The position numbers were made by a program, and so were the translations under genes. From the NCBI GenBank assembly GCA_003249165.1, contig QKJV01000098.1, forward strand, positions 19,793 to 83,792: 64,000 nucleotides of DNA, in the 5' to 3' direction. This document shows, in pieces, positions 2,801 through 60,801 of the stretch (the first letter of the stretch is position 1; each line of letters opens with the position of its first letter). This DNA is from Desulfobulbaceae bacterium. GTDB taxonomy: Bacteria; Desulfobacterota; Desulfobulbia; Desulfobulbales; SURF-16. A model generated the notes under the pieces. It saw only the letters and a list, made by a program, of their open reading frames with translations, was not told the origin of the DNA and made no database searches.

Positions 2801-5540
2801 AGAACCTTATTCGGCGAAATCATACTCCTATAACTCAAAATACATTGACAATCGCCTTGCCCTCCGTCCCCCTCAGAAGGAGAGCTTGGAGCGGTTCGCG
2901 CGGATTGTGGATATACTCTCCCTCTCAAAAACACCGAACTTGGATGAGGAACTCATAAAAATCCGTGAACTGTTCCCAACACTCACCAGTTTTGAGCGGG
3001 ACTTTCCGTCGGTATGCTTCGCCCTTGCCACGGGCATAGGCAAAACTCGATTGATGGGCGCAATGATTGCCTATCTGCACTACGAGAAAGGTGTCAATAA
3101 TTATTTTGTGATGGCCCCCAACCTCACGATTTATAAGAAGCTGAAAAACGACCTCGGTAACCCGAACAATGAAAAGTACGTGTTTCGAGGTTTAGATAAG
3201 TTCGTCAACGCGCCACGCATTATCGATGGCGACAATTACGAAGAATTCCGTCAGATGTCGCTGTTTGAAGGCGGCGTTACCATCAACGTCTTTAACATCA
3301 GCAAACTGAACTCAGAGAGCGGACGGATGCGCCGCTTGCAGGAGGTTCTTGGGCAGTCTTATTTTTCGTATTTACAATCCTTGCCCGACCTCTGCATCTT
3401 TATGGACGAAAGCCACCACTACCACGCCGACAGAGGGTTTGACACCATAAACGAGCTTCACCCAGTCCTTGGTGTGGAACTTACCGCAACACCACAAATT
3501 CAAAAAGGCGCACGGAAGATCGATTTCAATAACGTGGTGTATGAATACTCTCTTGCTCATGCGCTGAACGACGGGCTTTACGTCAAAGTCCCCGCCGTAT
3601 TCACTCGCCGGGATTTTCGCCATGAAGAATATACCCCGCAACAACTTGACCGCGAAAAACTCAACGACGGCATCCGTCTGCACGAAGAAACAAAAAGCAG
3701 ACTGGATGTGTACGCTCGTACCCACGGCAAGTCCATTGTTAAGCCGTTTGTGCTTGTTGTTGCCAAAGATACAACCCACTCTCGGGAAATACGCGAGTAT
3801 CTCACTTCGGATGCTTTCTTTCATGGATATTACAAAGATAAGGTATTGGAAATCAACTCGGCACAGCGCGGCTCGGAAAAGGACGAGAACATAGAGCTGC
3901 TACTCTCGCTTGAGTTGACCACCAATGTAATCGAAATCGTCATTCACGTCAATATGCTCAAGGAGGGCTGGGACGTGACGAACCTCTATACCATTATCCC
4001 TCTCCGCGCTTCGGCATCCGAAACACTCACGGAACAGACCATTGGGAGAGGTTTGCGTTTGCCTTATGGTCAGAGAGCAGGAGTGGATGAGGTTGACAGA
4101 CTCTCTATCGTCAGTCACGACCGTTATCAGGCGATTGTAGACCTTGCTAAAGACCCGAACTCACTTGTCCGTAAGATTTACTACATTGAGGAACAAGAAC
4201 TTCCCGAAAGCGAAGACGGGCGCGAAACCGTACCTCTTCCGACAGTTTATGACGCGTTGACCTCCGGCGAGAGCTTCACACAACAGTTGGCGTTTACCCT
4301 GCGTGAAACGGCGACGGACGAATACAAAGCTGAAAAAACGCCCGACCAGACGATGCTTATCGCAAGCATTGTCCAAAGTATAACCGCTAAAACGGTGGTC
4401 GAGGTTAACAGGCAGGTTCGGAATATTAATGCCATTAATGATGAACAAACGCGCAAATGGGTGCATGGCAGTATTGTTACGCAAGCCATACAGCAACTTC
4501 CCGAATTTGGGCTAAAAGAAGAGGACTTAACAGCAGTTGTCACGAAAGCAATCGAAACTTGTGCCCAAGCCCTCACAGAAAACGTCATTCCGATACCGCA
4601 GTCAGTCGTTCAGCCCCATACCGAAGTTAAGCGTGGATTTTATGACTTCACGCTTGATACGAGCCGTATGCGTTGGCATCCGTCCGACGACACACTCCTC
4701 GGCACGGAACTCATGGAGGGCGGCGAAACCTTTACGCTGGAAACAGGAACAGTTGCATTTGCAAAGATTGATACAGTGGAAAATGAGATTGTCCGACATA
4801 TTATCGTCCATGATAACGTGGACTACGCAACTTGTTCAGACCTCATCTATTCACTTATCACAGATGCCAAGCGGCACTTTTTGTCGTACTTGAATGATGA
4901 GGAAACGGAAAAAGTCATGCGCGATCGGCAGCGCACCATCGCTGAAATCATCTACGCGCAGATGAACGAGCATTTTTATAAAGAGGAAGTCAGCTATAGG
5001 GCAGCCAATATGCGCCCATTCACAAGGATTGAACCGAGTTTCGGCGGCAAGTTTAAATCGGATGAGATATATGACTTGCGGACGCCTATGGCGGCATCTG
5101 ATGTGAAGTCCAAGATATTCAGCGGATTTAAAAAAGCAGGTCATACGCTGTACAAATTCGACAGTGACACGGAGCGAACTTTTGCAGTCGTGCTGGAGAA
5201 CGATAATGCCGTTCTTCGTTGGTTGCGTCCCGCGCCGCGTCAGTTTAACATCTACTGGGGACAAGGCGGCGCGAGCCGTTATGAGCCAGATTTCATTGTT
5301 GAGACCGCCGAAACAATTTATATGTGCGAACCGAAAGCGAGCAACAAGATGCGAGATGCGGACGTGCTTGAAAAGCAGGAAGCCGCAGAAGAATACTGCC
5401 GCGCCGCCAGTGAATTCAACACCGAAAACGGCGGTAAACCGTGGAAGTATGTTCTTATTTCTCACGATGAAATCCGACCGCAGTCGAGTTTTACTTATCT
5501 CGCAAAACAAGCTTCGCACGAGCAGTTATCGATAGAGTAG
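2793..5540 (+). CDS. res: Type III restriction enzyme Res subunit (SF2 helicase + C-terminal PD-(D/E)xK nuclease)
   Basis: Motifs ATGIGKT (I), FMDESHHY (II), ELTATP (III), KEGWDVTNL (V), QTIGRGLRLP (VI). C-terminal YEPDF...MCEPK is a nuclease motif. Confidence 0.8.
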   Translation: MLREPYSAKSYSYNSKYIDNRLALRPPQKESLERFARIVDILSLSKTPNLDEELIKIRELFPTLTSFERDFPSVCFALATGIGKTRLMGAMIAYLHYEKGVNNYFVMAPNLTIYKKLKNDLGNPNNEKYVFRGLDKFVNAPRIIDGDNYEEFRQMSLFEGGVTINVFNISKLNSESGRMRRLQEVLGQSYFSYLQSLPDLCIFMDESHHYHADRGFDTINELHPVLGVELTATPQIQKGARKIDFNNVVYEYSLAHALNDGLYVKVPAVFTRRDFRHEEYTPQQLDREKLNDGIRLHEETKSRLDVYARTHGKSIVKPFVLVVAKDTTHSREIREYLTSDAFFHGYYKDKVLEINSAQRGSEKDENIELLLSLELTTNVIEIVIHVNMLKEGWDVTNLYTIIPLRASASETLTEQTIGRGLRLPYGQRAGVDEVDRLSIVSHDRYQAIVDLAKDPNSLVRKIYYIEEQELPESEDGRETVPLPTVYDALTSGESFTQQLAFTLRETATDEYKAEKTPDQTMLIASIVQSITAKTVVEVNRQVRNINAINDEQTRKWVHGSIVTQAIQQLPEFGLKEEDLTAVVTKAIETCAQALTENVIPIPQSVVQPHTEVKRGFYDFTLDTSRMRWHPSDDTLLGTELMEGGETFTLETGTVAFAKIDTVENEIVRHIIVHDNVDYATCSDLIYSLITDAKRHFLSYLNDEETEKVMRDRQRTIAEIIYAQMNEHFYKEEVSYRAANMRPFTRIEPSFGGKFKSDEIYDLRTPMAASDVKSKIFSGFKKAGHTLYKFDSDTERTFAVVLENDNAVLRWLRPAPRQFNIYWGQGGASRYEPDFIVETAETIYMCEPKASNKMRDADVLEKQEAAEEYCRAASEFNTENGGKPWKYVLISHDEIRPQSSFTYLAKQASHEQLSIE

Positions 5541-44875: not shown

Positions 44876-45382
44876 ATGGATAAAAAATATGAGAGGTTTG
44901 ACCTCAGAATTGAATACAAAAGCTTTGTCGGTGATAAGCCGATTGTTATAATTTCAAATTTACCGCTTTCTCAGCTAATTGCCGAGTATCCCGAATTAAA
45001 TGCAAGTCAATTTCAGCTTTACACACCTGCAGAGTGGAATGAAGTAAAGTCGGTTTTCACTGCATCTTGGAATAACAATATGAAATACAAAATGCGTGAT
45101 ATTCGCCATGCTGATATGGACGGATATCTTGAAGGCGATACCGAGCAGATAATTAAAAATATTGAAACCTCTACCGTGGAGGATAAGGCACTTGCAAATT
45201 TTGATAAAGAATCACTTTTGTCAGCTTTGGAATGTCTTAACGAAAATCAGAAAAGACGTATCACTCTGTATTATTTTCATGATCTTACATATCGGCAGAT
45301 AGCTGAAATTGATAGTGTTTCAGACAAGTCAGTTCGGGAATCAATTTCTGGTGCAATAAAAAAATTGAAAAAACTTTTATAA
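44876..45382 (+). CDS. Sigma-70 region-4-like HTH protein
   Basis: C-terminal RITLYYFHDLTYRQIAEIDSVSDKSVRESISGAIKKLKKLL. RBS ggagga. Confidence 0.6.
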   Translation: MDKKYERFDLRIEYKSFVGDKPIVIISNLPLSQLIAEYPELNASQFQLYTPAEWNEVKSVFTASWNNNMKYKMRDIRHADMDGYLEGDTEQIIKNIETSTVEDKALANFDKESLLSALECLNENQKRRITLYYFHDLTYRQIAEIDSVSDKSVRESISGAIKKLKKLL

Positions 45383-45832: not shown

Positions 45833-46006
45833 ATGGGTAATAAAAATACAAATTTAAATCACAACGGCATCACTGTTAATGCTGAGTCAGTAAAAATTCC
45901 TACAAATCATAAGTGCTATAAATGCATCTGGGCAAACACAGAATCCGGGCGGATATTTTGTTTCAGAAAACCATGCGTGAGGGAGGCAAAGAAAAATGGT
46001 AATTAA
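45833..46006 (+). CDS. 57-aa Cys-rich small ORF overlapping the mazF start (candidate non-canonical antitoxin)
   Basis: Hand-translated: MGNKNTNLNHNGITVNAESVKIPTNHKCYKCIWANTESGRIFCFRKPCVREAKKNGN. RBS agaggaag. 11-nt overlap with the MazF ORF. Too short for the ORF track. Confidence 0.35.
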   Translation: MGNKNTNLNHNGITVNAESVKIPTNHKCYKCIWANTESGRIFCFRKPCVREAKKNGN

Positions 46007-46337
46007 ACGCGGAGATATATTTTATGCAGATCTAAACCCTGTTTTCGGTTCAGAGCAAGGCGGATATCGTCCTGTTCTTGTAATTCAAAATGACATAGGC
46101 AATCAGCACAGTCCTACAGTTATTGTTGTTCCGATTTCATCAGTCGGCAAGAAAGCCTATCTGCCTGTGCATATAAATATTTCAGATACCAAACTTTTGC
46201 CGAAGGACTCAGTTATTCTTCTGGAACAGATACGAACACTGGATAAAAAGAGGCTAAGTGAATATGTTGGTTCATTTGAATGCGAAATGATGCAGAGGAT
46301 TGATAGGGCTATAAAAATAAGTGTGGGGGTAACGTGA
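45996..46337 (+). CDS. mazF: MazF/PemK-family endoribonuclease toxin
   Basis: IKRGDIFYADLNPVFGSEQGGYRPVLVIQNDIGNQHSPTVIVVPISS. Confidence 0.9.
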   Translation: MVIKRGDIFYADLNPVFGSEQGGYRPVLVIQNDIGNQHSPTVIVVPISSVGKKAYLPVHINISDTKLLPKDSVILLEQIRTLDKKRLSEYVGSFECEMMQRIDRAIKISVGVT

Positions 46338-46680
46338 ACTGCTTTCACGTATAAAAATTGATTTTTTGTACTTAAGTACAAAATTTTGCTTACACAAAAT
46401 CATCAATTTTTCAATAGGCAAGAATTCATAAAATGAAGGGAGATATTTATGATTAGATATGGACAGGCGGAATATGCAATATTTATCATGAAACAGGTTA
46501 CCGAAAAGCTGAGAAATCAGAATATTATCACAGAAGAGCAGTACAGACAACTTACAGCTAAAAATCAGGATGATTGTTATAATCAGTTCTGCACAGCGAA
46601 TGCCGCTTAATTTTGTTGGCTTTGGTGATAGCTATTCAATAAAAACTATGGTAATGTATGTAGTAAAAAAAGTGGGGTGA

Positions 46681-46816
46681 AAGTTTGAAAGATAAATCTT
46701 CCAAACCACGAGTTTTGTGCCTTTGAAGAATTAATTCTTCAATTTCCAATGCACCCTTCGGGTTCATCGGAAACCGTCACAAAACATCGCAAATAGTTAG
46801 AAAGGGAATGGTTATA
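46681..46816 (+). repeat. Recombinase leader repeat, copy A (partner at 50218-50343)
   Basis: ~125-nt near-identical segment ending in the recombinase start region. Hairpins at 46683-46706, 46723-46742 and 46753-46763. Confidence 0.85.
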
Positions 46817-48355
46817 AACATGAGCAATGTTACAGTTATTCAGCCAACAATATCAGATGAAAAAACAAAGATCCGCGTTGCTGCATATTGTCGCGTAAGT
46901 TCTGATTCAGCTGACCAGATAAATTCATTTATGGCACAGGTCACATTCTATGAAAATTTTCTTTCAGACAGCACAACACAACAATTTGTCGGAATTTATG
47001 CTGATGAGGGTATTACCGGCACAAGAATTGACAAGCGTGATGAATTTAAAAGGCTTATGCATGACTGCCGCAGAGGAAAAATCGATAGGATTATTACAAA
47101 ATCCATATCCCGTTTTTCAAGAAATACAAAAGATTGCCTGACTTCAGTGCGAGAGCTCAAGGAGTTGGGTATTTCAGTTTTGTTCGAAAAAGAAGACATT
47201 GATACAGCAAATATGACAGATGAAATGATGATAACTCTTATGGGCGGTCTTGCACAGGAAGAATCGGTGTCAATTTCTAATAATGTTCGGTGGGGAATAC
47301 GTAAACAAATGCAGAATGGAACATTTATAGCGTCCTCTGTTCCATATGGGTATAGACTCATTGATAAAAAGCTTATTGTTGTAAAATCAGAGGCGGAAGT
47401 TGTTAGAAAGATATTTCAGATGTACCTTGAAGGCAATGGCATAAATACAATTGCAGCTGAGTTACGCTCATTAGGCTTGGAAAGAGAAAATTCTGAATGG
47501 GGTAAAAATGCGGTAAGATATATTCTTTCAAATGAAAAATATATCGGTGAATCAACATTTCAGAAATGGTATATGACATCAACCTTGCCTTATAGGTGCA
47601 AAGAAAACAAGGGCGAACTCGACAAATATAACGTAACGGATCACCATGAGCGGATTATTTCAAAAGAAGTTTTTCAATCGGTGCAAAAACTTATTAAAAA
47701 GAGGGGAGAAGTAAAAGTCGGAAATACATATTCTCAGTGCCCACTTTCGGGTAAAATATATTGCGGAGAATGTGGTACATTGTTTAAATTCAAGCAACGC
47801 AGAACCTATGGATGCTGGGTGTGCAGACGACATGATGAAAGTGCAGAGAACTGCTCTGCAAAACAAATTTCGGAATTGGATGTTTATAACACTTTCGTAT
47901 GCCTTTACAATAAGCTGAAACAGAATTACAAGCAAATTCTTCTGCCACTGCGGTCACAGCTACAGGAGCTTAACCTGAAGAAATTCAGCGGAAACAATAA
48001 TGTGCTTGATATTCATAAGGAAATCGCTCAGTTTAAAGAACAGACTCATGTGCTTGCAAGGCTTAAAACAAAAGGATTTCTTGATGATGTAAAATATTAC
48101 GAACAGACAAATGAGATTACTTCAAAGATAAATAAGCTTCAGCAAAAACTTCGTCAGCTGACTCAAAGCGATGATGAGGACGATATTATTGAACAGATTT
48201 CATTGCTGATATCAATTCTTGAAAAAGATAATAATATGCTTACGGAATTTGATGATAATATCTTTGAAAGCGTGGTTGAGAAAATTATTGTCAAATCGCA
48301 GACAGAACTTGAATTTCAGCTTATCGGCGGAATGAAATTTAAAGAAAAATGTTGA
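46808..48355 (+). CDS. Large serine recombinase
   Basis: [15 protein letters not shown] (catalytic Ser), SISRFSRNT, recombinase domain PYGYRL, zinc ribbon CGECG...CWVC, coiled-coil C-terminus. The true start may be the second ATG at 46820. Confidence 0.9.
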   Translation: MVINMSNVTVIQPTISDEKTKIRVAAYCRVSSDSADQINSFMAQVTFYENFLSDSTTQQFVGIYADEGITGTRIDKRDEFKRLMHDCRRGKIDRIITKSISRFSRNTKDCLTSVRELKELGISVLFEKEDIDTANMTDEMMITLMGGLAQEESVSISNNVRWGIRKQMQNGTFIASSVPYGYRLIDKKLIVVKSEAEVVRKIFQMYLEGNGINTIAAELRSLGLERENSEWGKNAVRYILSNEKYIGESTFQKWYMTSTLPYRCKENKGELDKYNVTDHHERIISKEVFQSVQKLIKKRGEVKVGNTYSQCPLSGKIYCGECGTLFKFKQRRTYGCWVCRRHDESAENCSAKQISELDVYNTFVCLYNKLKQNYKQILLPLRSQLQELNLKKFSGNNNVLDIHKEIAQFKEQTHVLARLKTKGFLDDVKYYEQTNEITSKINKLQQKLRQLTQSDDEDDIIEQISLLISILEKDNNMLTEFDDNIFESVVEKIIVKSQTELEFQLIGGMKFKEKC

Positions 48356-48400
48356 GAAATCGTGTTGATTGTGGTATAATAAATGAAAGGTGGTGCTGAT

Positions 48401-49234
48401 ATGGCAAAGTTTAAAGACACAATTTCTGCAAATGGTAATGAAATAGCTATTATTTCAGATGGAATTGATAATGACTATATCTCTCTTACGGATATAGCAA
48501 GATATAAAAGTGCTGAACCAAAGGATGTAATAAAAAATTGGATGCGTTCAAAATCCACAATTGAATTTTTGGGGTTATGGGAAAAACTCAATAATCCTAA
48601 TTTTAAAGGGGTCGAATTCGACTCCTTTAAAAATGAAGCAGGTGCAAATGCTTTTACTATGTCTCCACAGAAATGGATCGAAAGCACAGATGCTATTGGG
48701 GTAATTTCCAAGTCTGGCAGAAATGGCGGAACTTTTGCTCATAAAGATATCGCATTTGAATTTGCTTCATGGGTATCAGCTGAATTTAAGCTGTATATTA
48801 TCAAGGACTATCAAAGGCTGAAAGCTGATGAAAGCAACCGTTTGTCTTTGGATTGGAATGTTAAGCGAACGCTTGCCAAAATAAATTATAAAATACATAC
48901 AGATGCAATTAAAGAGAACATTATTCCAAAGTGTGTTACTGAACAGCAGAAAAAATATTCATATGCATCGGAAGCGGATATATTGAATGTCGCATTGTTT
49001 GGCATGACAGCGACAGAATGGAAAAAGTCAAATAGTGAACTAAAGGGTAATATCCGTGATTATGCAACTGTTCAGCAACTTGTAGTGCTGACTAATCTGG
49101 AAAGCTTGAATGCTGAATACATACGTCAATGTTTATCGCCAAATGAAAGACTTATGAAACTCAATGAAGCGGCAATTAATCAAATGAAGTCGCTGTCGGG
49201 TAATTTTAGCGTAAACAGACTTGAGAGTAAATAG
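48401..49234 (+). CDS. KilA-N domain protein
   Basis: NDYISLTDIARYKSAEPKDVIKNWMRSKSTIEFLGLWEKLNNPNF...GGTFAHKDIAFEFASWVS. Own extended -10 (tgtggtataat). ATG at 48401 with RBS aaaggtgg. Confidence 0.8.
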   Translation: MAKFKDTISANGNEIAIISDGIDNDYISLTDIARYKSAEPKDVIKNWMRSKSTIEFLGLWEKLNNPNFKGVEFDSFKNEAGANAFTMSPQKWIESTDAIGVISKSGRNGGTFAHKDIAFEFASWVSAEFKLYIIKDYQRLKADESNRLSLDWNVKRTLAKINYKIHTDAIKENIIPKCVTEQQKKYSYASEADILNVALFGMTATEWKKSNSELKGNIRDYATVQQLVVLTNLESLNAEYIRQCLSPNERLMKLNEAAINQMKSLSGNFSVNRLESK

Positions 49235-49242
49235 AGAAAAAT

Positions 49243-49277
49243 GTGCTTTGTGAACAATTCACAAGGCGCATTTTTTG
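49243..49277 (+). terminator. Rho-independent terminator
   Basis: ctttgtgaa-caa-ttcacaagg stem followed by attttttg. Confidence 0.65.
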
Positions 49278-49344
49278 TGACTTTAGTAATAGATATTCCG
49301 TACGGAATGTGGTATTGTTGTAATGAAAATTAGGAGGCGATAAA

Positions 49345-50232
49345 ATGAAGAAAAACAGAATCCTTCCCTTCGGCTACTGCATGCAAAACGGGGAAATCAT
49401 TCCACAGCCTAAAGAAAGTGAAGCTGTCAAGCAGATTTTTATTTCTTACATAAACGGCGAATCTTTAAGCAATATCGCAGATATGATGACAGCTAATAAT
49501 ATTTCTTATCATGAATGCTCTGAAAAGTGGAACAAGAATATGATTAATCGTATACTTGAAAATGAAAAATATCTCGGTAATGATGAATACTTACCGATTA
49601 TCTCACAGGAAGACTTTACACTTGCCAATGCCAAAAAACAAAAAAAATCCACTAAAGTATGTGTTATTTCTGATGAACTGAATATAATCCGTGAAAGAAC
49701 TTTTTGCAAGGAATGCGGAAAACGCTTAATTCGTATTGGAGGTAATAACCGTTCTGAAAAATGGGACTGCAGAAATGCAGAATGTTCAAGGCTGGGATTT
49801 CGATTAACTGACAATATACTTATTGGATCAGTGCTTAATGTACTAAATGCTGTAATTGCAAATCCAAAGCTACTAATTGCTCCACAGACTGAAAATACAT
49901 ATCAGCCGGATATGACGATAACACGTCAGATAAATGAAATAGACAGGCTAATGGAAAATCCGGGTGTAAATTATGAAAGTGCAAAAGCTGAAATTGTAAA
50001 GCTTGCAGAGTTAAAATATAACTGCTGTAATTATGATGACAGTCCACAGAAAACAGAACAGTTACTGTCTTTGATTTCTGAAAGAGAACAACTTAATACG
50101 CTTGATATTGACTTATATAAATCCACAGTTTCACGGATTTATATAAGTCATTTTAATTTTATAGAGGTTGAATTTATAAACGGAAAAGTAATAAAAACTA
50201 TTTTTGAAAGTGGTAATAAGTTTGAAAGATAA
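49345..50232 (+). CDS. Serine-recombinase-family protein lacking the catalytic resolvase domain (recombinase + zinc-ribbon domains only)
   Basis: Starts at LPFGYCMQNGEIIPQPKESEAVKQIF, which aligns with PYGYRLIDKKLIVVKSEAEVVRKIF of the 46808 protein. CKECG...CRNAEC zinc ribbon. Own RBS aggagg. Confidence 0.75.
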   Translation: MKKNRILPFGYCMQNGEIIPQPKESEAVKQIFISYINGESLSNIADMMTANNISYHECSEKWNKNMINRILENEKYLGNDEYLPIISQEDFTLANAKKQKKSTKVCVISDELNIIRERTFCKECGKRLIRIGGNNRSEKWDCRNAECSRLGFRLTDNILIGSVLNVLNAVIANPKLLIAPQTENTYQPDMTITRQINEIDRLMENPGVNYESAKAEIVKLAELKYNCCNYDDSPQKTEQLLSLISEREQLNTLDIDLYKSTVSRIYISHFNFIEVEFINGKVIKTIFESGNKFER

Positions 50233-50343
50233 ATCTTTCAAACTACGAGTTTTATGCCTTTGAGGAATTAATTCCTCAATTTCCGATGTACCCTTTGGGT
50301 TCATCAGAAACCGTCACAAAACATCGAGAAAGGAATGGTTATA
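50218..50343 (+). repeat. Recombinase leader repeat, copy B
   Basis: See copy A. Hairpins at 50220-50243, 50260-50279 and 50290-50300. Confidence 0.85.
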
Positions 50344-51960
50344 TTAATGACAGCTCAGAATGTTAAAATAATTCCCGCAACAACGAAAACAGCAGAAGGC
50401 AGAAATAAGTACCATCAGCTTAGTGTTGCTGCTTACTGCCGAGTTTCTACCGAACAGGAAGAACAGCAAAACAGCTACCAAGTTCAGATTGCATATTACA
50501 CTGATAAAATCAATTCAAATAAGGAATGGTCACTTGCCGGAATTTTTGCTGATGAGGGCATTTCGGGAACACAGGCAAAGAAACGTCCAGAATTTCTTCG
50601 AATGATTAGGCTGTGTGAAAAAGGGAAAATTGACCTTGTGCTTTCAAAATCAATTTCAAGATTTGCACGAAATACTGTTGACTGTCTTGAATATGTAAGA
50701 AGGCTCAAAGAAAAAGGTATTGGGGTTATTTTTGAAAAGGAAAATATCAATACTCTCACTATGACCAGTGAATTTATGATTGCTTTATACGGAAGCTTTG
50801 CACAGGCAGAAAGCGAATCAATCAGCAAAAATGTTACCTGGGGCAAGCAAAAAGCTTATGCTGATGGGAAAGTTGCTTTTCAGTATAAACATTTACTGGG
50901 TTATAAAAAAGGCTCTGACGGAAATCCGGAAATTGTTCCCGAAGAAGCTGAAACTGTTAAAATGATATTTGAAATGTTCCTTGACGGATTGAGCTATGTG
51001 GATATTTGTGACAGGCTGAATGCTCTTGAAAGAAAAACTGCCCATGGCAATACTGAATGGCACAGGGACTGTATCGGTAATATTCTAAAAAATGAAAAGT
51101 ACGTTGGCGATGCGTTATTGCAAAAAACTTTCACAGTTGATTGCATAACAAAAAAGGTACAGAAAAATAACGGGGAACGTCCTATGTACCTAGTTTCAAA
51201 TCATCATGAGGCAATAATTGACCGAGATATGTTCAATCGTGTTCAGCAAGAGCTTGCAAGGCGAGTTTCTAAGCGTAAAACTTCTGATAAAACTATAACC
51301 CAGCAAGGCAAATATTCAAGCAAATACGCACTTTCCGAACTTCTTATATGTGGTAACTGCGGTTCACCATATCGCAGAGCAGTATGGACTTCAAGAGGGA
51401 AACGGCAAGTTGTATGGCGGTGCATAAGCCGACTTGAACACGGGAAAAAATACTGTACTCTATCACCGACAATGCACGAGGAAAAGCTTCAGACTGCGAT
51501 TTTACAAGCGGTAAATGAATACCTTGGCTGTCGTGATGAAATTGCTAAAATACTGAAAGCCAATATTGGTACTGTACTTGAATGTCAGGGGCAAGAGAAA
51601 ATATTGTTTCTTGAAAAACGGCTTGGTGAACTTGATAATGCAAGAAATGATATAATTGCACTGATTGCATCTGGTGGCTGTGATGAAGAAAAAATGGACA
51701 CGGAATTTGCAAAACTTTATACAGAGGAACATGCTATAAATGAGCAGTTATTAGAACTGAAGGGAAAAATCAAATTATCGGCAGATACTAAAAATAAGAT
51801 AGATACTGCAATGAATATGATTGAGAATGAAAAATTCGAACTTGAGTTTTTCGATAATGTCATTATCCGCAAGCTGATTGAATGTATAAAAGTCCTTAAC
51901 AAAACGGAGATCCTTATAATCTTCAAGGGCGGAGTTGAGGTTAAGGCAGAGATTGAATAA
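50335..51960 (+). CDS. Large serine recombinase
   Basis: [24 protein letters not shown], recombinase domain, CGNCGSPY...VWRC zinc ribbon, coiled-coil C-terminus. Confidence 0.9.
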   Translation: MVILMTAQNVKIIPATTKTAEGRNKYHQLSVAAYCRVSTEQEEQQNSYQVQIAYYTDKINSNKEWSLAGIFADEGISGTQAKKRPEFLRMIRLCEKGKIDLVLSKSISRFARNTVDCLEYVRRLKEKGIGVIFEKENINTLTMTSEFMIALYGSFAQAESESISKNVTWGKQKAYADGKVAFQYKHLLGYKKGSDGNPEIVPEEAETVKMIFEMFLDGLSYVDICDRLNALERKTAHGNTEWHRDCIGNILKNEKYVGDALLQKTFTVDCITKKVQKNNGERPMYLVSNHHEAIIDRDMFNRVQQELARRVSKRKTSDKTITQQGKYSSKYALSELLICGNCGSPYRRAVWTSRGKRQVVWRCISRLEHGKKYCTLSPTMHEEKLQTAILQAVNEYLGCRDEIAKILKANIGTVLECQGQEKILFLEKRLGELDNARNDIIALIASGGCDEEKMDTEFAKLYTEEHAINEQLLELKGKIKLSADTKNKIDTAMNMIENEKFELEFFDNVIIRKLIECIKVLNKTEILIIFKGGVEVKAEIE

Positions 51961-52027: not shown

Positions 52028-53101
52028 ATGCCAAATAATTATGACGGTATCAAAACACAGAAGTTCGGTATTGAGGTTGAAATGACAGGTATAACCCGTG
52101 GAAAAGCTGCAAAGGTTGTTGCACAATTTTTTAATACCGAGGCTGAGCATTTCGGTGGGAGCTATGATATGTACAGAATTACAGACTCACAGGGCAGAAC
52201 ATGGAAAATCATGTCCGATGCAAGTATTCGCTGTACGAAAAAAGACGGCACTTCCGCAACAAAAATGTATTCGGTAGAATTCGTAACTCCTGTATGCCAA
52301 TATGATGATATTGAGGATATTCAGCAGATTATTCGTGATTTGCGTACAGCCGGCGGTATCTGCAACGACTCAACAGGTATTCATATCCACATAAATGCTG
52401 AGCCTTATGATGCGAAAACACTCCGAAATCTTGTTAACATTATTTCAAGCAAGGAAAATATGATTTACCGAGCCTTACAAGTTGATTATGGTCGGCAAAA
52501 CTACTGCAAAAAGGTGGACAGGGATTTTCTTGAAAGGATTAATAAAGAAAAGCCCTCCACTATGGAGAAACTGAAAAATTTGTGGTATAACGGTCATGAT
52601 GGTTCGGGTGTTCATTACCACAATTCAAGGTATCATCTGCTAAATTTGCATTCTGTCTTTTCAAAAGGAACAGTTGAAATTCGTGCATTCAACAGCACTC
52701 TTCATGCCGGAGTTTTACGCTCATACTTAATTCTCTGTCTTGCGATAAGCAATCAGGCTTTACAGCAAAAATCTGCTCAGTGTCGGGAAACACTGAGCAG
52801 TAATGAAAAATACACGTTTCGAACATGGCTTTTGCGACTTGGATTGATTGGTGATGAGTTCAAGAACTGCAGAAGTCATTTACTTTCCCATCTTGACGGC
52901 TGTATTGCATGGAAAAATCCAGAGGATGCTATTGCTCAGCGTGAAAGGTTAAAACAAGAGCGTATTACCCAGCAGGGGCAAAATGTCGAGCCTGTGTCGG
53001 CTTCTCAGGAAGAATCCGTGATAACACCCGATGAAAATGAAACTGCCGTTGTAAGCGGATTTGAGGAAGAAAATGAAGAAAGCTTTGAAATGAGTATGTA
53101 A
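52028..53101 (+). CDS. Amidoligase-family protein (Amidoligase_2-like)
   Basis: KFGIEVEMTGITRGKAAKVV...WKIMSDASI...TGIHIHI pattern of mobile-element amidoligases. Confidence 0.75.
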   Translation: MPNNYDGIKTQKFGIEVEMTGITRGKAAKVVAQFFNTEAEHFGGSYDMYRITDSQGRTWKIMSDASIRCTKKDGTSATKMYSVEFVTPVCQYDDIEDIQQIIRDLRTAGGICNDSTGIHIHINAEPYDAKTLRNLVNIISSKENMIYRALQVDYGRQNYCKKVDRDFLERINKEKPSTMEKLKNLWYNGHDGSGVHYHNSRYHLLNLHSVFSKGTVEIRAFNSTLHAGVLRSYLILCLAISNQALQQKSAQCRETLSSNEKYTFRTWLLRLGLIGDEFKNCRSHLLSHLDGCIAWKNPEDAIAQRERLKQERITQQGQNVEPVSASQEESVITPDENETAVVSGFEEENEESFEMSM

Positions 53102-53146
53102 AGTATGAAAAACAAAAACTTCGAATATAGGAAGGACGATTACAAA

Positions 53147-53620
53147 ATGAAAAATAAAACGCTATATATTGCCTATGGCAGTAACATCAATCTTGAACAA
53201 ATGGCATGCCGATGTCCCACAGCCACAAAGTTCGGATCTGGGACAATTTCAGATTATGAGTTGCAGTTCCGTCGGGTTGCTACAATTGAACCAAAGGTGA
53301 ATTCAGAAGTTCCAGTTTTGTTGTGGGAGCTTGAACCAAGCGATGAAAAAAGCCTTGACAGATACGAGGGATATCCTAATTTTTATCGCAAAGAATATTT
53401 TGAGCTGGAGATTGATGGCGAAACCCGTGAGGCAATGGCTTACGTTATGAATGGCGGACAAATTAATGTTCCTTCAGAAGCTTACTACAATGGTATTGAA
53501 AAAGGATATATTGATAATGGGCTTGACATCGCTTATCTTGAAAAAGCTTTGGAACAGGCATATCAGACGGTTCAGGAATTTCAAAATTGTGAAGAAGGTT
53601 TTCAATTTGAGTTTGAGTAA
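53147..53620 (+). CDS. Gamma-glutamylcyclotransferase/AIG2-like protein
   Basis: LYIAYGSNINLEQMACRCP...LDRYEGYPNFY. ATG at 53147 with RBS aggaagga. Confidence 0.75.
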   Translation: MKNKTLYIAYGSNINLEQMACRCPTATKFGSGTISDYELQFRRVATIEPKVNSEVPVLLWELEPSDEKSLDRYEGYPNFYRKEYFELEIDGETREAMAYVMNGGQINVPSEAYYNGIEKGYIDNGLDIAYLEKALEQAYQTVQEFQNCEEGFQFEFE

Positions 53621-59952: not shown

Positions 59953-60801
59953 ATGTCAGAAAATAACAAGTCTTGTTCGGAGGAATGTTCAAAGGAATCA
60001 TGCGAGGAATGTAGTAAAAGTCCTGAAAGCTTGATTGAGAAAACGCATGAGTTTAACTCTATAAAAAAAGTAATTGGTGTTGTCAGTGGCAAAGGCGGTG
60101 TTGGCAAATCAATCGTTACTTCAATGCTAGCGGTTCTCATGAACAGAAAAGGCTATAAAAGTGCTGTTCTTGATGCTGATGTAACAGGGCCATCAATTCC
60201 AAAAATATTTGGTATTAAAGAAAAAGCACAAAGCAATGAATTAGGTTTATTCCCAGCAAAAAGCAAAACAGATATAGGAATTATGTCTGTAAACCTTTTG
60301 CTTGAAAATGACACAGATCCAGTAGTATGGAGAGGGCCTATAATTGCAGGAACTGTAAAGCAGTTCTGGACAGACGTGCTTTGGGGTGATGTGGACTATA
60401 TGTTTATAGATATGCCGCCGGGAACCGGTGATGTTCCTCTTACTGTATTTCAGTCAATTCCTGTTGACGGTATAATTATTGTAACATCACCACAGGAGCT
60501 AGTTTCTATGATTGTAGAAAAGGCTGTAAAAATGGCTCAAATGATGGATATCCCAATATTGGGACTTGTAGAAAATATGAGCTATTTCAAATGTCCTGAC
60601 TGCGGAAAAGAAATAAGTATATTTGGAGAAAGTCATATTGAGAGGATAGCCACAGATAATAATATTACAAATATAGCAAAGCTTCCTATAAATCCGAAAA
60701 TTGCAGCGGCATGCGATAAGGGAGTAATTGAACTTTTTGATGGAAATTGGCTTGATAATATTGCGGACAATTTTGAAAAAATGATTGATTCGGAGAAATA
60801 A
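59953..60801 (+). CDS. Mrp/NBP35-family Fe-S cluster carrier ATPase
   Basis: VVSGKGGVGKS deviant Walker A, DMPPGTGD, CPDCG. Confidence 0.85.
   Translation: MSENNKSCSEECSKESCEECSKSPESLIEKTHEFNSIKKVIGVVSGKGGVGKSIVTSMLAVLMNRKGYKSAVLDADVTGPSIPKIFGIKEKAQSNELGLFPAKSKTDIGIMSVNLLLENDTDPVVWRGPIIAGTVKQFWTDVLWGDVDYMFIDMPPGTGDVPLTVFQSIPVDGIIIVTSPQELVSMIVEKAVKMAQMMDIPILGLVENMSYFKCPDCGKEISIFGESHIERIATDNNITNIAKLPINPKIAAACDKGVIELFDGNWLDNIADNFEKMIDSEK

Follow-up and report, generated by a model that had tools for sequence, protein, structure and literature searches.

The stretch of DNA analysed here (the window: 64,000 nucleotides, positions 19793-83792 of contig QKJV01000098.1, from a metagenome-assembled genome, or MAG, filed under Desulfobulbaceae) carries two near-identical leaders, copy A (46683-46819) and copy B (50220-50346), directly upstream of rec1 and rec3, the two genes that encode full large serine recombinases. 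Both leaders most probably belong to a single family of small, mobile structured repeats that are dispersed in Ruminococcus-type Clostridia, and do not represent a regulator of the recombinases. Direct comparisons support their membership of this family, its structure and covariation, its site of insertion, its presence/absence polymorphism between genomes and its lack of gene specificity. The family is in no catalogue that we found and is absent from Rfam 15: the covariance-model search, which an earlier reading of this DNA made from its letters alone (the sequence-only reading) had proposed, matched no Rfam family at the window leaders (E up to 1) or for 20 copies from the genome designated G524 (E up to 0.1), and no description of such a repeat was found in the literature.

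The two leaders are ~92% identical. They share a gap-free direct repeat of 109 nt (46681-46789 and 50218-50326, 92% identity), followed by a 10-nt insertion or deletion, after which the similarity resumes up to 4 nt before the start codons; the sequence-only reading was therefore right in reporting a near-identical duplicated leader before both full-length recombinase genes. The Rec1 and Rec3 proteins are only 31% identical, so that the leaders either arose long after the gene duplication or are under much stronger constraint. Copies A and B differ by ten substitutions, including one compensatory pair in a palindromic helix (P3), and the chance of one such pair among ten substitutions is, on a rough estimate, ~0.15. 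The two copies alone therefore prove little, and it is the wider family that supplies the evidence for a constraint on the pairing.

In energy folding, each copy forms a hairpin (P1), then a three-way junction and then an unpaired Shine-Dalgarno (SD) module, and the element as a whole measures ~110-150 nt. In copies A and B, P1 is a 10-bp AT-rich hairpin, P3 a 20-nt palindrome and P4 a 13-bp hairpin; P3 and P4 are enclosed by a long-range helix, P2 (CGAGTTTTGTG with CACAAAAC-A-TCG), which was recovered by energy folding and had been missed by the sequence-only reading. The three hairpins of that reading are all present: P1 and P3 stand as described, the latter a perfect palindrome with a genuine A/T to G/C double change, while P4 is longer than was claimed, with 13 pairs (TTTCC..ACCC / GGGT..GGAAA). 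The stop codon of rec2 does lie in the P1 loop of copy B. The joiners of the junction, CCT and CCGT, are invariant, and 3' of the junction lies the unpaired SD stretch GAAAGGA-ATGG. On the plus strand, the z-scores of the two copies against shuffled sequences are -3.5 and -4.3. Single-sequence folds of copies from five other genomes, which are independent of the covariance model described below, show the same architecture, and the folds of A, of B and of a copy of the type found at locus L028 of Ruminococcus sp. 210702-SL.1.03 all give P1, the three-way junction and an unpaired SD. The SD module occurs in a short form (AGAAAGGA-ATGGTNAT) and in a long form with an extra hairpin between the SD and ATGGTNAT (for example in L161); copies A and B are of the short form and have no such hairpin. 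No site resembling an intrinsic terminator (a G+C-rich stem followed directly by a run of T) was found in either leader region.

A covariance model of 42 base pairs was built from A, B and two L028-type copies, among which all cells pair and seven pairs show double changes. A search with this model gave matches in 19 of the 151 genomes of the family that includes the L028 genome; 28 copies were detected in G524, 34 in G428 and 18 in G552, more candidates having been scored. Weak hits to the model (E ~1) occurred in L030, L037 and L055. Alignment of the divergent copies with MAFFT was structurally wrong, and a model-guided alignment was used instead. Across 34 distinct copies, 96.8% of the cells are paired, compared with 69% in shuffles and 28-55% when the partners are slid, and 40 of the 42 pairs have changed on both sides. 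The covariation among homologous copies that the sequence-only reading had asked for is thus present, and its view that the preserved pairing reflects constraint is upheld. Its suggestion of a symmetric operator is not, since P3 varies freely among the copies in sequence, length and loop, and pairing alone is kept.

At about 25 of 30 loci the neighbouring genes are co-directional and the element stands between them in the sense orientation, after the upstream stop codon and directly before the downstream start. In G524 the domains of the downstream gene products are TGS (thrS-like), argininosuccinate synthase (argG), MraW/RsmH (rsmH), UPRTase (upp), PlsX (plsX), RapZ (rapZ), D-Tyr-tRNA deacylase (dtd) and PRAI (trpF); these are unrelated housekeeping genes, which argues that the element is not tied to recombinases, and no consistent link with one gene family or pathway was found. 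The L028 genome holds two further divergent copies (L128, 1501-1583, plus strand; L129, 184-235, minus strand). One of the two is flanked by a Toprim/DUF3991 gene and a coupling-protein gene and is oppositely oriented; the other is a reduced copy, made up of P1 and a simple P2 hairpin, upstream of a D12 adenine methyltransferase gene and, farther on, of a DUF3846 gene. No match to the leader was returned by BLASTN searches of plasmids and phages or by pattern scans of viral contigs.

The site of insertion was defined by comparing 20 G524 sites with the related genome G552 (an argG fragment is 99% identical as protein between the two). Nine of the sites are cleanly empty in G552, with flanks that are ~80-95% identical, one holds an internal-deletion remnant, six are filled in both genomes and four are ambiguous. 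Empty sites read SD, 0-3 nt, (T)AAAT-ATG, whereas filled sites read SD, N, AA, GTTTGAAAG...core...SD module...ATGGTNAT and then the same native (T)AAAT-ATG, which places the insert behind the native SD and 4-5 nt short of the start codon; in one case it is 5' of the native SD. At the argG site, G524 and G552 both have the insert, and 13 other relatives lack it. In 13 of the 16 G524 copies for which a downstream open reading frame (ORF) could be called, the ATG of the element is in frame with the native ATG and 12 nt 5' of it, and the window shows the same in-frame register of 12 nt (46808/46820 and 50335/50347). Rec3 homologues begin at the second of these ATGs, which makes 46820 and 50347 the probable true starts and assigns the ATGs at 46808 and 50335 to the leader.

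The strong homology between A and B ends at the element borders as set by copies elsewhere (...GGAATGGTTAT, then AAAC in A or ATTA in B, then ATG). A repeat unit that spans a duplicated gene junction, as the sequence-only reading had it, is not supported, in view of these borders, which the filled and empty sites define as those of a mobile insert, and of the absence of any such leader from most relatives of the recombinase module. The sequence 5' of P1 is purine-rich, SD-like and native in both copies; what copy A had been thought to retain of the 3' end of rec2 amounts to ~13 nt of such similarity and not to ~25 nt.

Tandem copies were seen at some loci (L142, L154 and L141), and some copies carry on their 5' side a copy-specific duplicate, 12-18 nt in length, of their own SD module (L135 and L147); the flank duplication in L135 measures 18 nt. 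The 5' duplicates and the tandem copies fit neither a 2-nt target duplication nor a simple insertion.

In the mechanism that these junctions suggest, the element would enter the A/T-rich spacer just 3' of a gene's own SD, 4-5 nt before the start codon, and the downstream gene would then be translated from the SD that the element supplies. In the window, one copy would have landed before rec1 and one before rec3, the latter breaking the usual abutting or overlapping arrangement of rec2 and rec3 and supplying the last codons and the stop of rec2. Judged from the sequence, Rec1 and Rec3 would now be under one common translation-initiation region, with a presumed effect on their expression. The stems may be kept because propagating copies need them, or because the insert stays harmless as long as its new SD is unpaired behind a stable fold.

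A and B are most simply read as two insertions of one subfamily. The alternative for the origin of this pair is a single insertion followed by local copying, through gene conversion or templated repair, in which case the matched A/T to G/C change would reflect quasi-palindrome correction and not selection. Such copying would account for the closeness of A and B, which resemble one another more than any other copy found, for the motif AAAGTGG that both have just outside the 5' border and for stems that are almost purely Watson-Crick. However, the native 4 nt before the ATG differ (AAAC and ATTA), the homology stops at the usual element borders and copies within one genome are typically as similar anyway, which leaves local copying a possible but doubtful origin.

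The recombinase module offers a further test of specificity. The comparison set comprised 80 loci with genes for Rec3 homologues (50-77% identity), most of them from Ruminococcus and Oscillospiraceae. A copy of the element stands at the rec2-rec3 junction in one of the 80 homologous modules (L028) and is missing from the other 79; in the upstream regions that were inspected, rec2 reaches or enters the rec3 start and no leader separates the two. None of the 80 loci gave a BLASTN match to the leader, and the L028 homologue, a diverged and shorter version, was recognised by eye only. All of its helices are kept via different sequence: P1 is TTTGAAAGC/GCTTTCAAA, P3 is TTGCGGAC/GTCCGCAA and P4 is TTTGC/GCAAA. 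A pattern scan of metagenomes added 23 copies, all near-identical to the L028 type and bringing no new diversity, together with one apparent chance match (L121). Other copies precede an orthologue of Rec1 (L143, 55% identity) and another serine recombinase (L139). Analogues of the empty site are found in L072 for rec1 and in L035 and L021 for rec3. In L028 (~4330-4520, the same place as L127), the rec2 frame is free of stops through the whole repeat and ends inside rec3, so that ~30 codons are added to Rec2.

The sequence-only reading had taken the leader to be a cis-regulatory element or symmetric operator dedicated to the two full-length recombinases, and the presence of a copy before each catalytic gene of the window, before the L143 and L139 recombinases and before L028-type rec3 counts in its favour. 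Against it stand the 79 related modules that lack the element, the unrelated housekeeping genes that are preceded by it, the lack of conservation of the palindrome sequence and a conserved promoter-like cassette further upstream that is a better candidate for control, and we consider a dedicated role very unlikely. This cassette (TTGTTGnCTTTGG..(25-45 nt)..TGTGGTATTGT) is found before rec1 in the window, before rec2 in six relatives and before rec1 in L072; the loci are L027, L028, L035, L049, L051, L072 and L074, and a similar stretch occurs near 49257-49320 of the window. The cassette is likelier than the repeat to be the true control region, and it is perhaps read by the small sigma-like protein of the island (44876-45382).

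A second set of alternatives concerns the strand on which the structure acts. Between A and B, all four one-sided stem changes are A.C mismatches when read as mRNA and G.U pairs when read on the other strand, and the minus strand is the better folded (-45.8 and -44.6 kcal/mol, compared with -34.7 and -36.0 kcal/mol for the plus strand). Across the family, the 1191 cells of the modelled strand comprise 1124 Watson-Crick pairs, 29 G.U, 21 A.C and 17 other mismatches, so that the asymmetry seen between A and B disappears. A structure on the minus strand could be an antisense RNA that covers the ribosome sites of the recombinase genes or a signal in single-stranded DNA, for example a priming site or the single-strand promoter of a transferred element. 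The folding energies and the four G.U changes would suit it, as would the L028-genome copies near the D12 adenine methyltransferase and DUF3846 genes and, oppositely oriented, between the Toprim and coupling-protein genes. However, four changes of four would arise by chance in 1 case in 8 (two-sided), the leader regions showed no antisense promoter or terminator, no conjugation gene is among the window ORFs scanned against Pfam, and the element has its SD in the sense direction and keeps a fixed register to the start codons of chromosomal genes. Function on the minus strand therefore appears very improbable.

The element might instead be useful to the host as part of the mRNA. In this case the fold would act on the transcript and be kept at many genes because it helps, either as a 5' stabiliser or as a nuclease-processing insulator that releases the downstream cistron from its upstream context and offers a strong SD, and this would be compatible with a mobile origin. 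The near-constant sense orientation to the downstream gene, the unpaired SD behind a stable structure, the housekeeping genes of G524 and the pairing kept across divergent genomes are all in keeping with such a role. Set against these, G.U is no commoner than A.C on either strand (29 versus 21), unlike in typical functional RNAs, the four one-sided stem changes between A and B are all A.C in the mRNA sense, and the nine of 20 sites that differ between two related genomes indicate that single copies are dispensable; host usefulness is accordingly a rather unlikely alternative. The near-pure Watson-Crick pairing without an excess of G.U suggests a constraint on DNA or on the propagating copies, or arms kept alike by templated correction, and does not look like classic selection on a long-lived RNA.

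Several known repeats resemble the family in kind. The BOX, RUP and SPRITE repeats of Streptococcus pneumoniae are not known to carry a ribosome site. The family of the window differs from them in standing at a fixed register before start codons, in the sense orientation, and in bringing an SD. The pneumococcal repeats are likewise small, multi-copy and non-coding, with stable stem-loops, are often co-transcribed with their neighbours and vary between related genomes, and they are over-represented between convergent genes (Croucher et al. 2011, PMC3049150). The resemblance of the present family to BOX, MIRU, ERIC and Correia elements is of kind only. MIRUs (mycobacterial interspersed repetitive units) are reportedly intercistronic repeats in operons, oriented with the genes, sometimes tandem and positioned relative to the flanking stop and start codons, features which the present element shares, and they are said to preserve translational coupling via small overlapping ORFs. 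The element of the window differs in breaking the coupling and supplying a free-standing SD, and MIRUs are not known for a conserved multi-helix fold. The REP, BIME and REPIN sequences, which are associated with RAYT (Y1/HUH) transposases, are also dispersed extragenic palindromes in which pairing is kept because the hairpin is recognised, but the present element has no GTAG or CGTC head, is much larger (~110-150 nt) and forms a three-way junction. The split ribosome-binding site of phage T4 gene 38 has a hairpin between the SD and the start region and is peculiar to that one gene. The long-form SD module (L161) also places a hairpin there; the T4 site differs in not being a mobile repeat, and the window copies are of the short form, without that hairpin.

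Two classes of mobile element were tried and rejected. A classical miniature inverted-repeat transposable element has terminal inverted repeats and a fixed target-site duplication, which were not found here, and a REP/REPIN element mobilised by a RAYT would have a conserved tetranucleotide head, which is lacking; seven Y1_Tnp loci gave only two weak matches to the model, both in L197 (21.3 and 17.9 bits).

Some observations weigh against a mobile repeat family. The alignments used for the pair counts were fitted to the model. The ends of the element (GTTTGAAAG... and ...ATGGTNAT) are not inverted repeats, a target duplication of at most ~2 nt (AA/TA) is possible and not proven, and no mobilising enzyme was identified, the Y1 transposase loci having given no convincing link. 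Copies A and B are similar over 7-13 nt just beyond the 5' border, including the common AAAGTGG, and one copy could have been templated from the other and not independently inserted. Finally, copies recur before serine recombinase genes (twice in the window, in L028 and 23 metagenome contigs, in L139 and in L143), where the element could have been co-opted.

The features of the recombinase module and of the two copies are listed in Table 1. Rec2 (~295 residues) has a Recombinase domain and no Resolvase domain; its relatives in L027, L028, L033-L036 and L070 begin at the same MPKNRIIPFGYCM, which identifies it as the conserved catalytic-less partner in a three-gene module and not as a truncation. 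A perfect 16-bp inverted repeat (TGACTTATATAAATCC / GGATTTATATAAGTCA, 10 nt apart, 50109-50150, plus strand) lies within the 3' coding part of rec2, and a similar one occupies the same place in relatives. Between rec1 and rec2 is a KilA-N domain gene (48383-49234, plus strand); several relatives have only a terminator and a promoter-like cassette at this position and others have different cargo.

Table 1. Features of the recombinase module and of leader copies A and B (window positions; J, junction joiner).
Feature	Position	Strand	Remarks
Promoter-like cassette	46613..46665	+	TTGTTGGCTTTGG...TATGGTAATGT; upstream of copy A; common to the rec2 and rec1 upstream regions of relatives
Copy A, P1	46683..46706	+	GTTTGAAAGA-TAAA-TCTTCCAAAC; one A.C mismatch at 46688/46701
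Copy A, three-way junction	46709..46789	+	P2 5' strand 46709-46719; J CCT 46720-22; P3 46723-46742; P4 46743-46773; J CCGT 46774-77; P2 3' strand 46778-46789
Copy A, SD module	46790..46815	+	10-nt copy-specific insert, then GAAAGGGA-ATGGTTAT; element ATG 46808, native ATG 46820 (12 nt on)
Copy A, 4 nt before ATG	46816-46819	+	Read as native
rec1	46820..48355	+	Full large serine recombinase (Resolvase + Recombinase + Zn ribbon); likely true start 46820
rec2	49345..50232	+	Paralogue, Recombinase domain only, no catalytic domain; last codons encoded by the element
Copy B, P1	50220..50243	+	Perfect 10 bp; rec2 stop TAA 50230-50232 in loop
Copy B, three-way junction	50246..50326	+	P2 50246-50256 / 50315-50326, one A.C; J CCT; P3 50260-50279; P4 50280-50310; J CCGT
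Copy B, SD module	50327..50342	+	AGAAAGGA-ATGGTTAT; element ATG 50335; native ATTA, then ATG 50347
rec3	50347..51960	+	Full large serine recombinase (Resolvase + Recombinase + Zn ribbon); likely true start 50347

Copies A and B are the only ones in the MAG, and none was found in the genomes sampled from its family and order; a BLASTN search of 400 genomes of that order with the leader gave only a chance coding match (L020). The GC content to the right of the island is 35-37%, compared with 45% for the MAG, and the tetranucleotide correlation of the contig (C317 in our numbering) is the second lowest among 24 large contigs. An Mrp-like flank gene (59953-60801) has counterparts of 56-76% identity in 69 of 101 genomes of the family of L028, compared with only 33-41% in the MAG's own family. 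The contig is therefore most probably mis-binned, and its likely source is a Ruminococcus-type organism, a member of the group that harbours the repeat. A transfer of the island between orders, carrying two foreign repeats with it, was considered in view of the absence of the repeat from the MAG's family and order and was dropped, as the flank GC content and the Mrp-like gene point to the family of L028.

To the left of the recombinases (1-44200) the window holds a defence island with type III and type I (HsdM/S/R) restriction-modification systems, an SbcCD-like pair, McrBC with an EVE domain, AAA_13, a Macro-domain protein, a WYL regulator, an HTH and M78 peptidase pair, a PLD-like protein, helicases and an SPFH/zinc-ribbon protein, in addition to the small sigma-like protein mentioned above. 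Immediately to the left of the recombinase module, a pemK RNA motif (RF02913, 45617-45697, plus strand; 60 bits, the gathering score being 34.8) precedes a PemK/MazF-like toxin gene (45996-46337). Directly 3' of rec3 are Amidoligase_2 and gamma-glutamyl cyclotransferase-like genes (52028-53620, plus strand) at the presumed right edge of the island, and ordinary anaerobe genes follow to the right of ~53.6 kb.

Recognition of the leaders as copies of a dispersed repeat removes a tempting wrong annotation, that of a recombinase riboregulator, accounts for a 92% identical leader before genes whose products are only 31% identical, reveals that the junction between rec2 and rec3, which usually abut or overlap, has been lost here and helps to expose a probably mis-binned contig. 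A bolder proposal, which we put forward tentatively and which may well prove wrong, is that the family is a self-propagating translation-initiation cassette that homes to the spacer between SD and start codon at a fixed 12-nt register, replaces the ribosome site of the host gene and spreads by a mechanism not yet described for bacterial repeats. The spread might proceed by microhomology-templated copying between initiation regions (the SD on the left and AAAT-ATG on the right) or by an unknown enzyme or RNA-guided step that reads the fold. If this is true, landing on the recombinase genes of mobile islands would let the cassette travel between genomes. Insertion at a fixed register together with a ribosome site of its own would be an unusual route to harmlessness for selfish DNA, one by which the translation of dozens of genes per genome may have been rewired. 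The element would represent a natural, portable 'insulated ribosome-binding site', and it raises the tractable question of what recognises the SD-AUG spacer in DNA.

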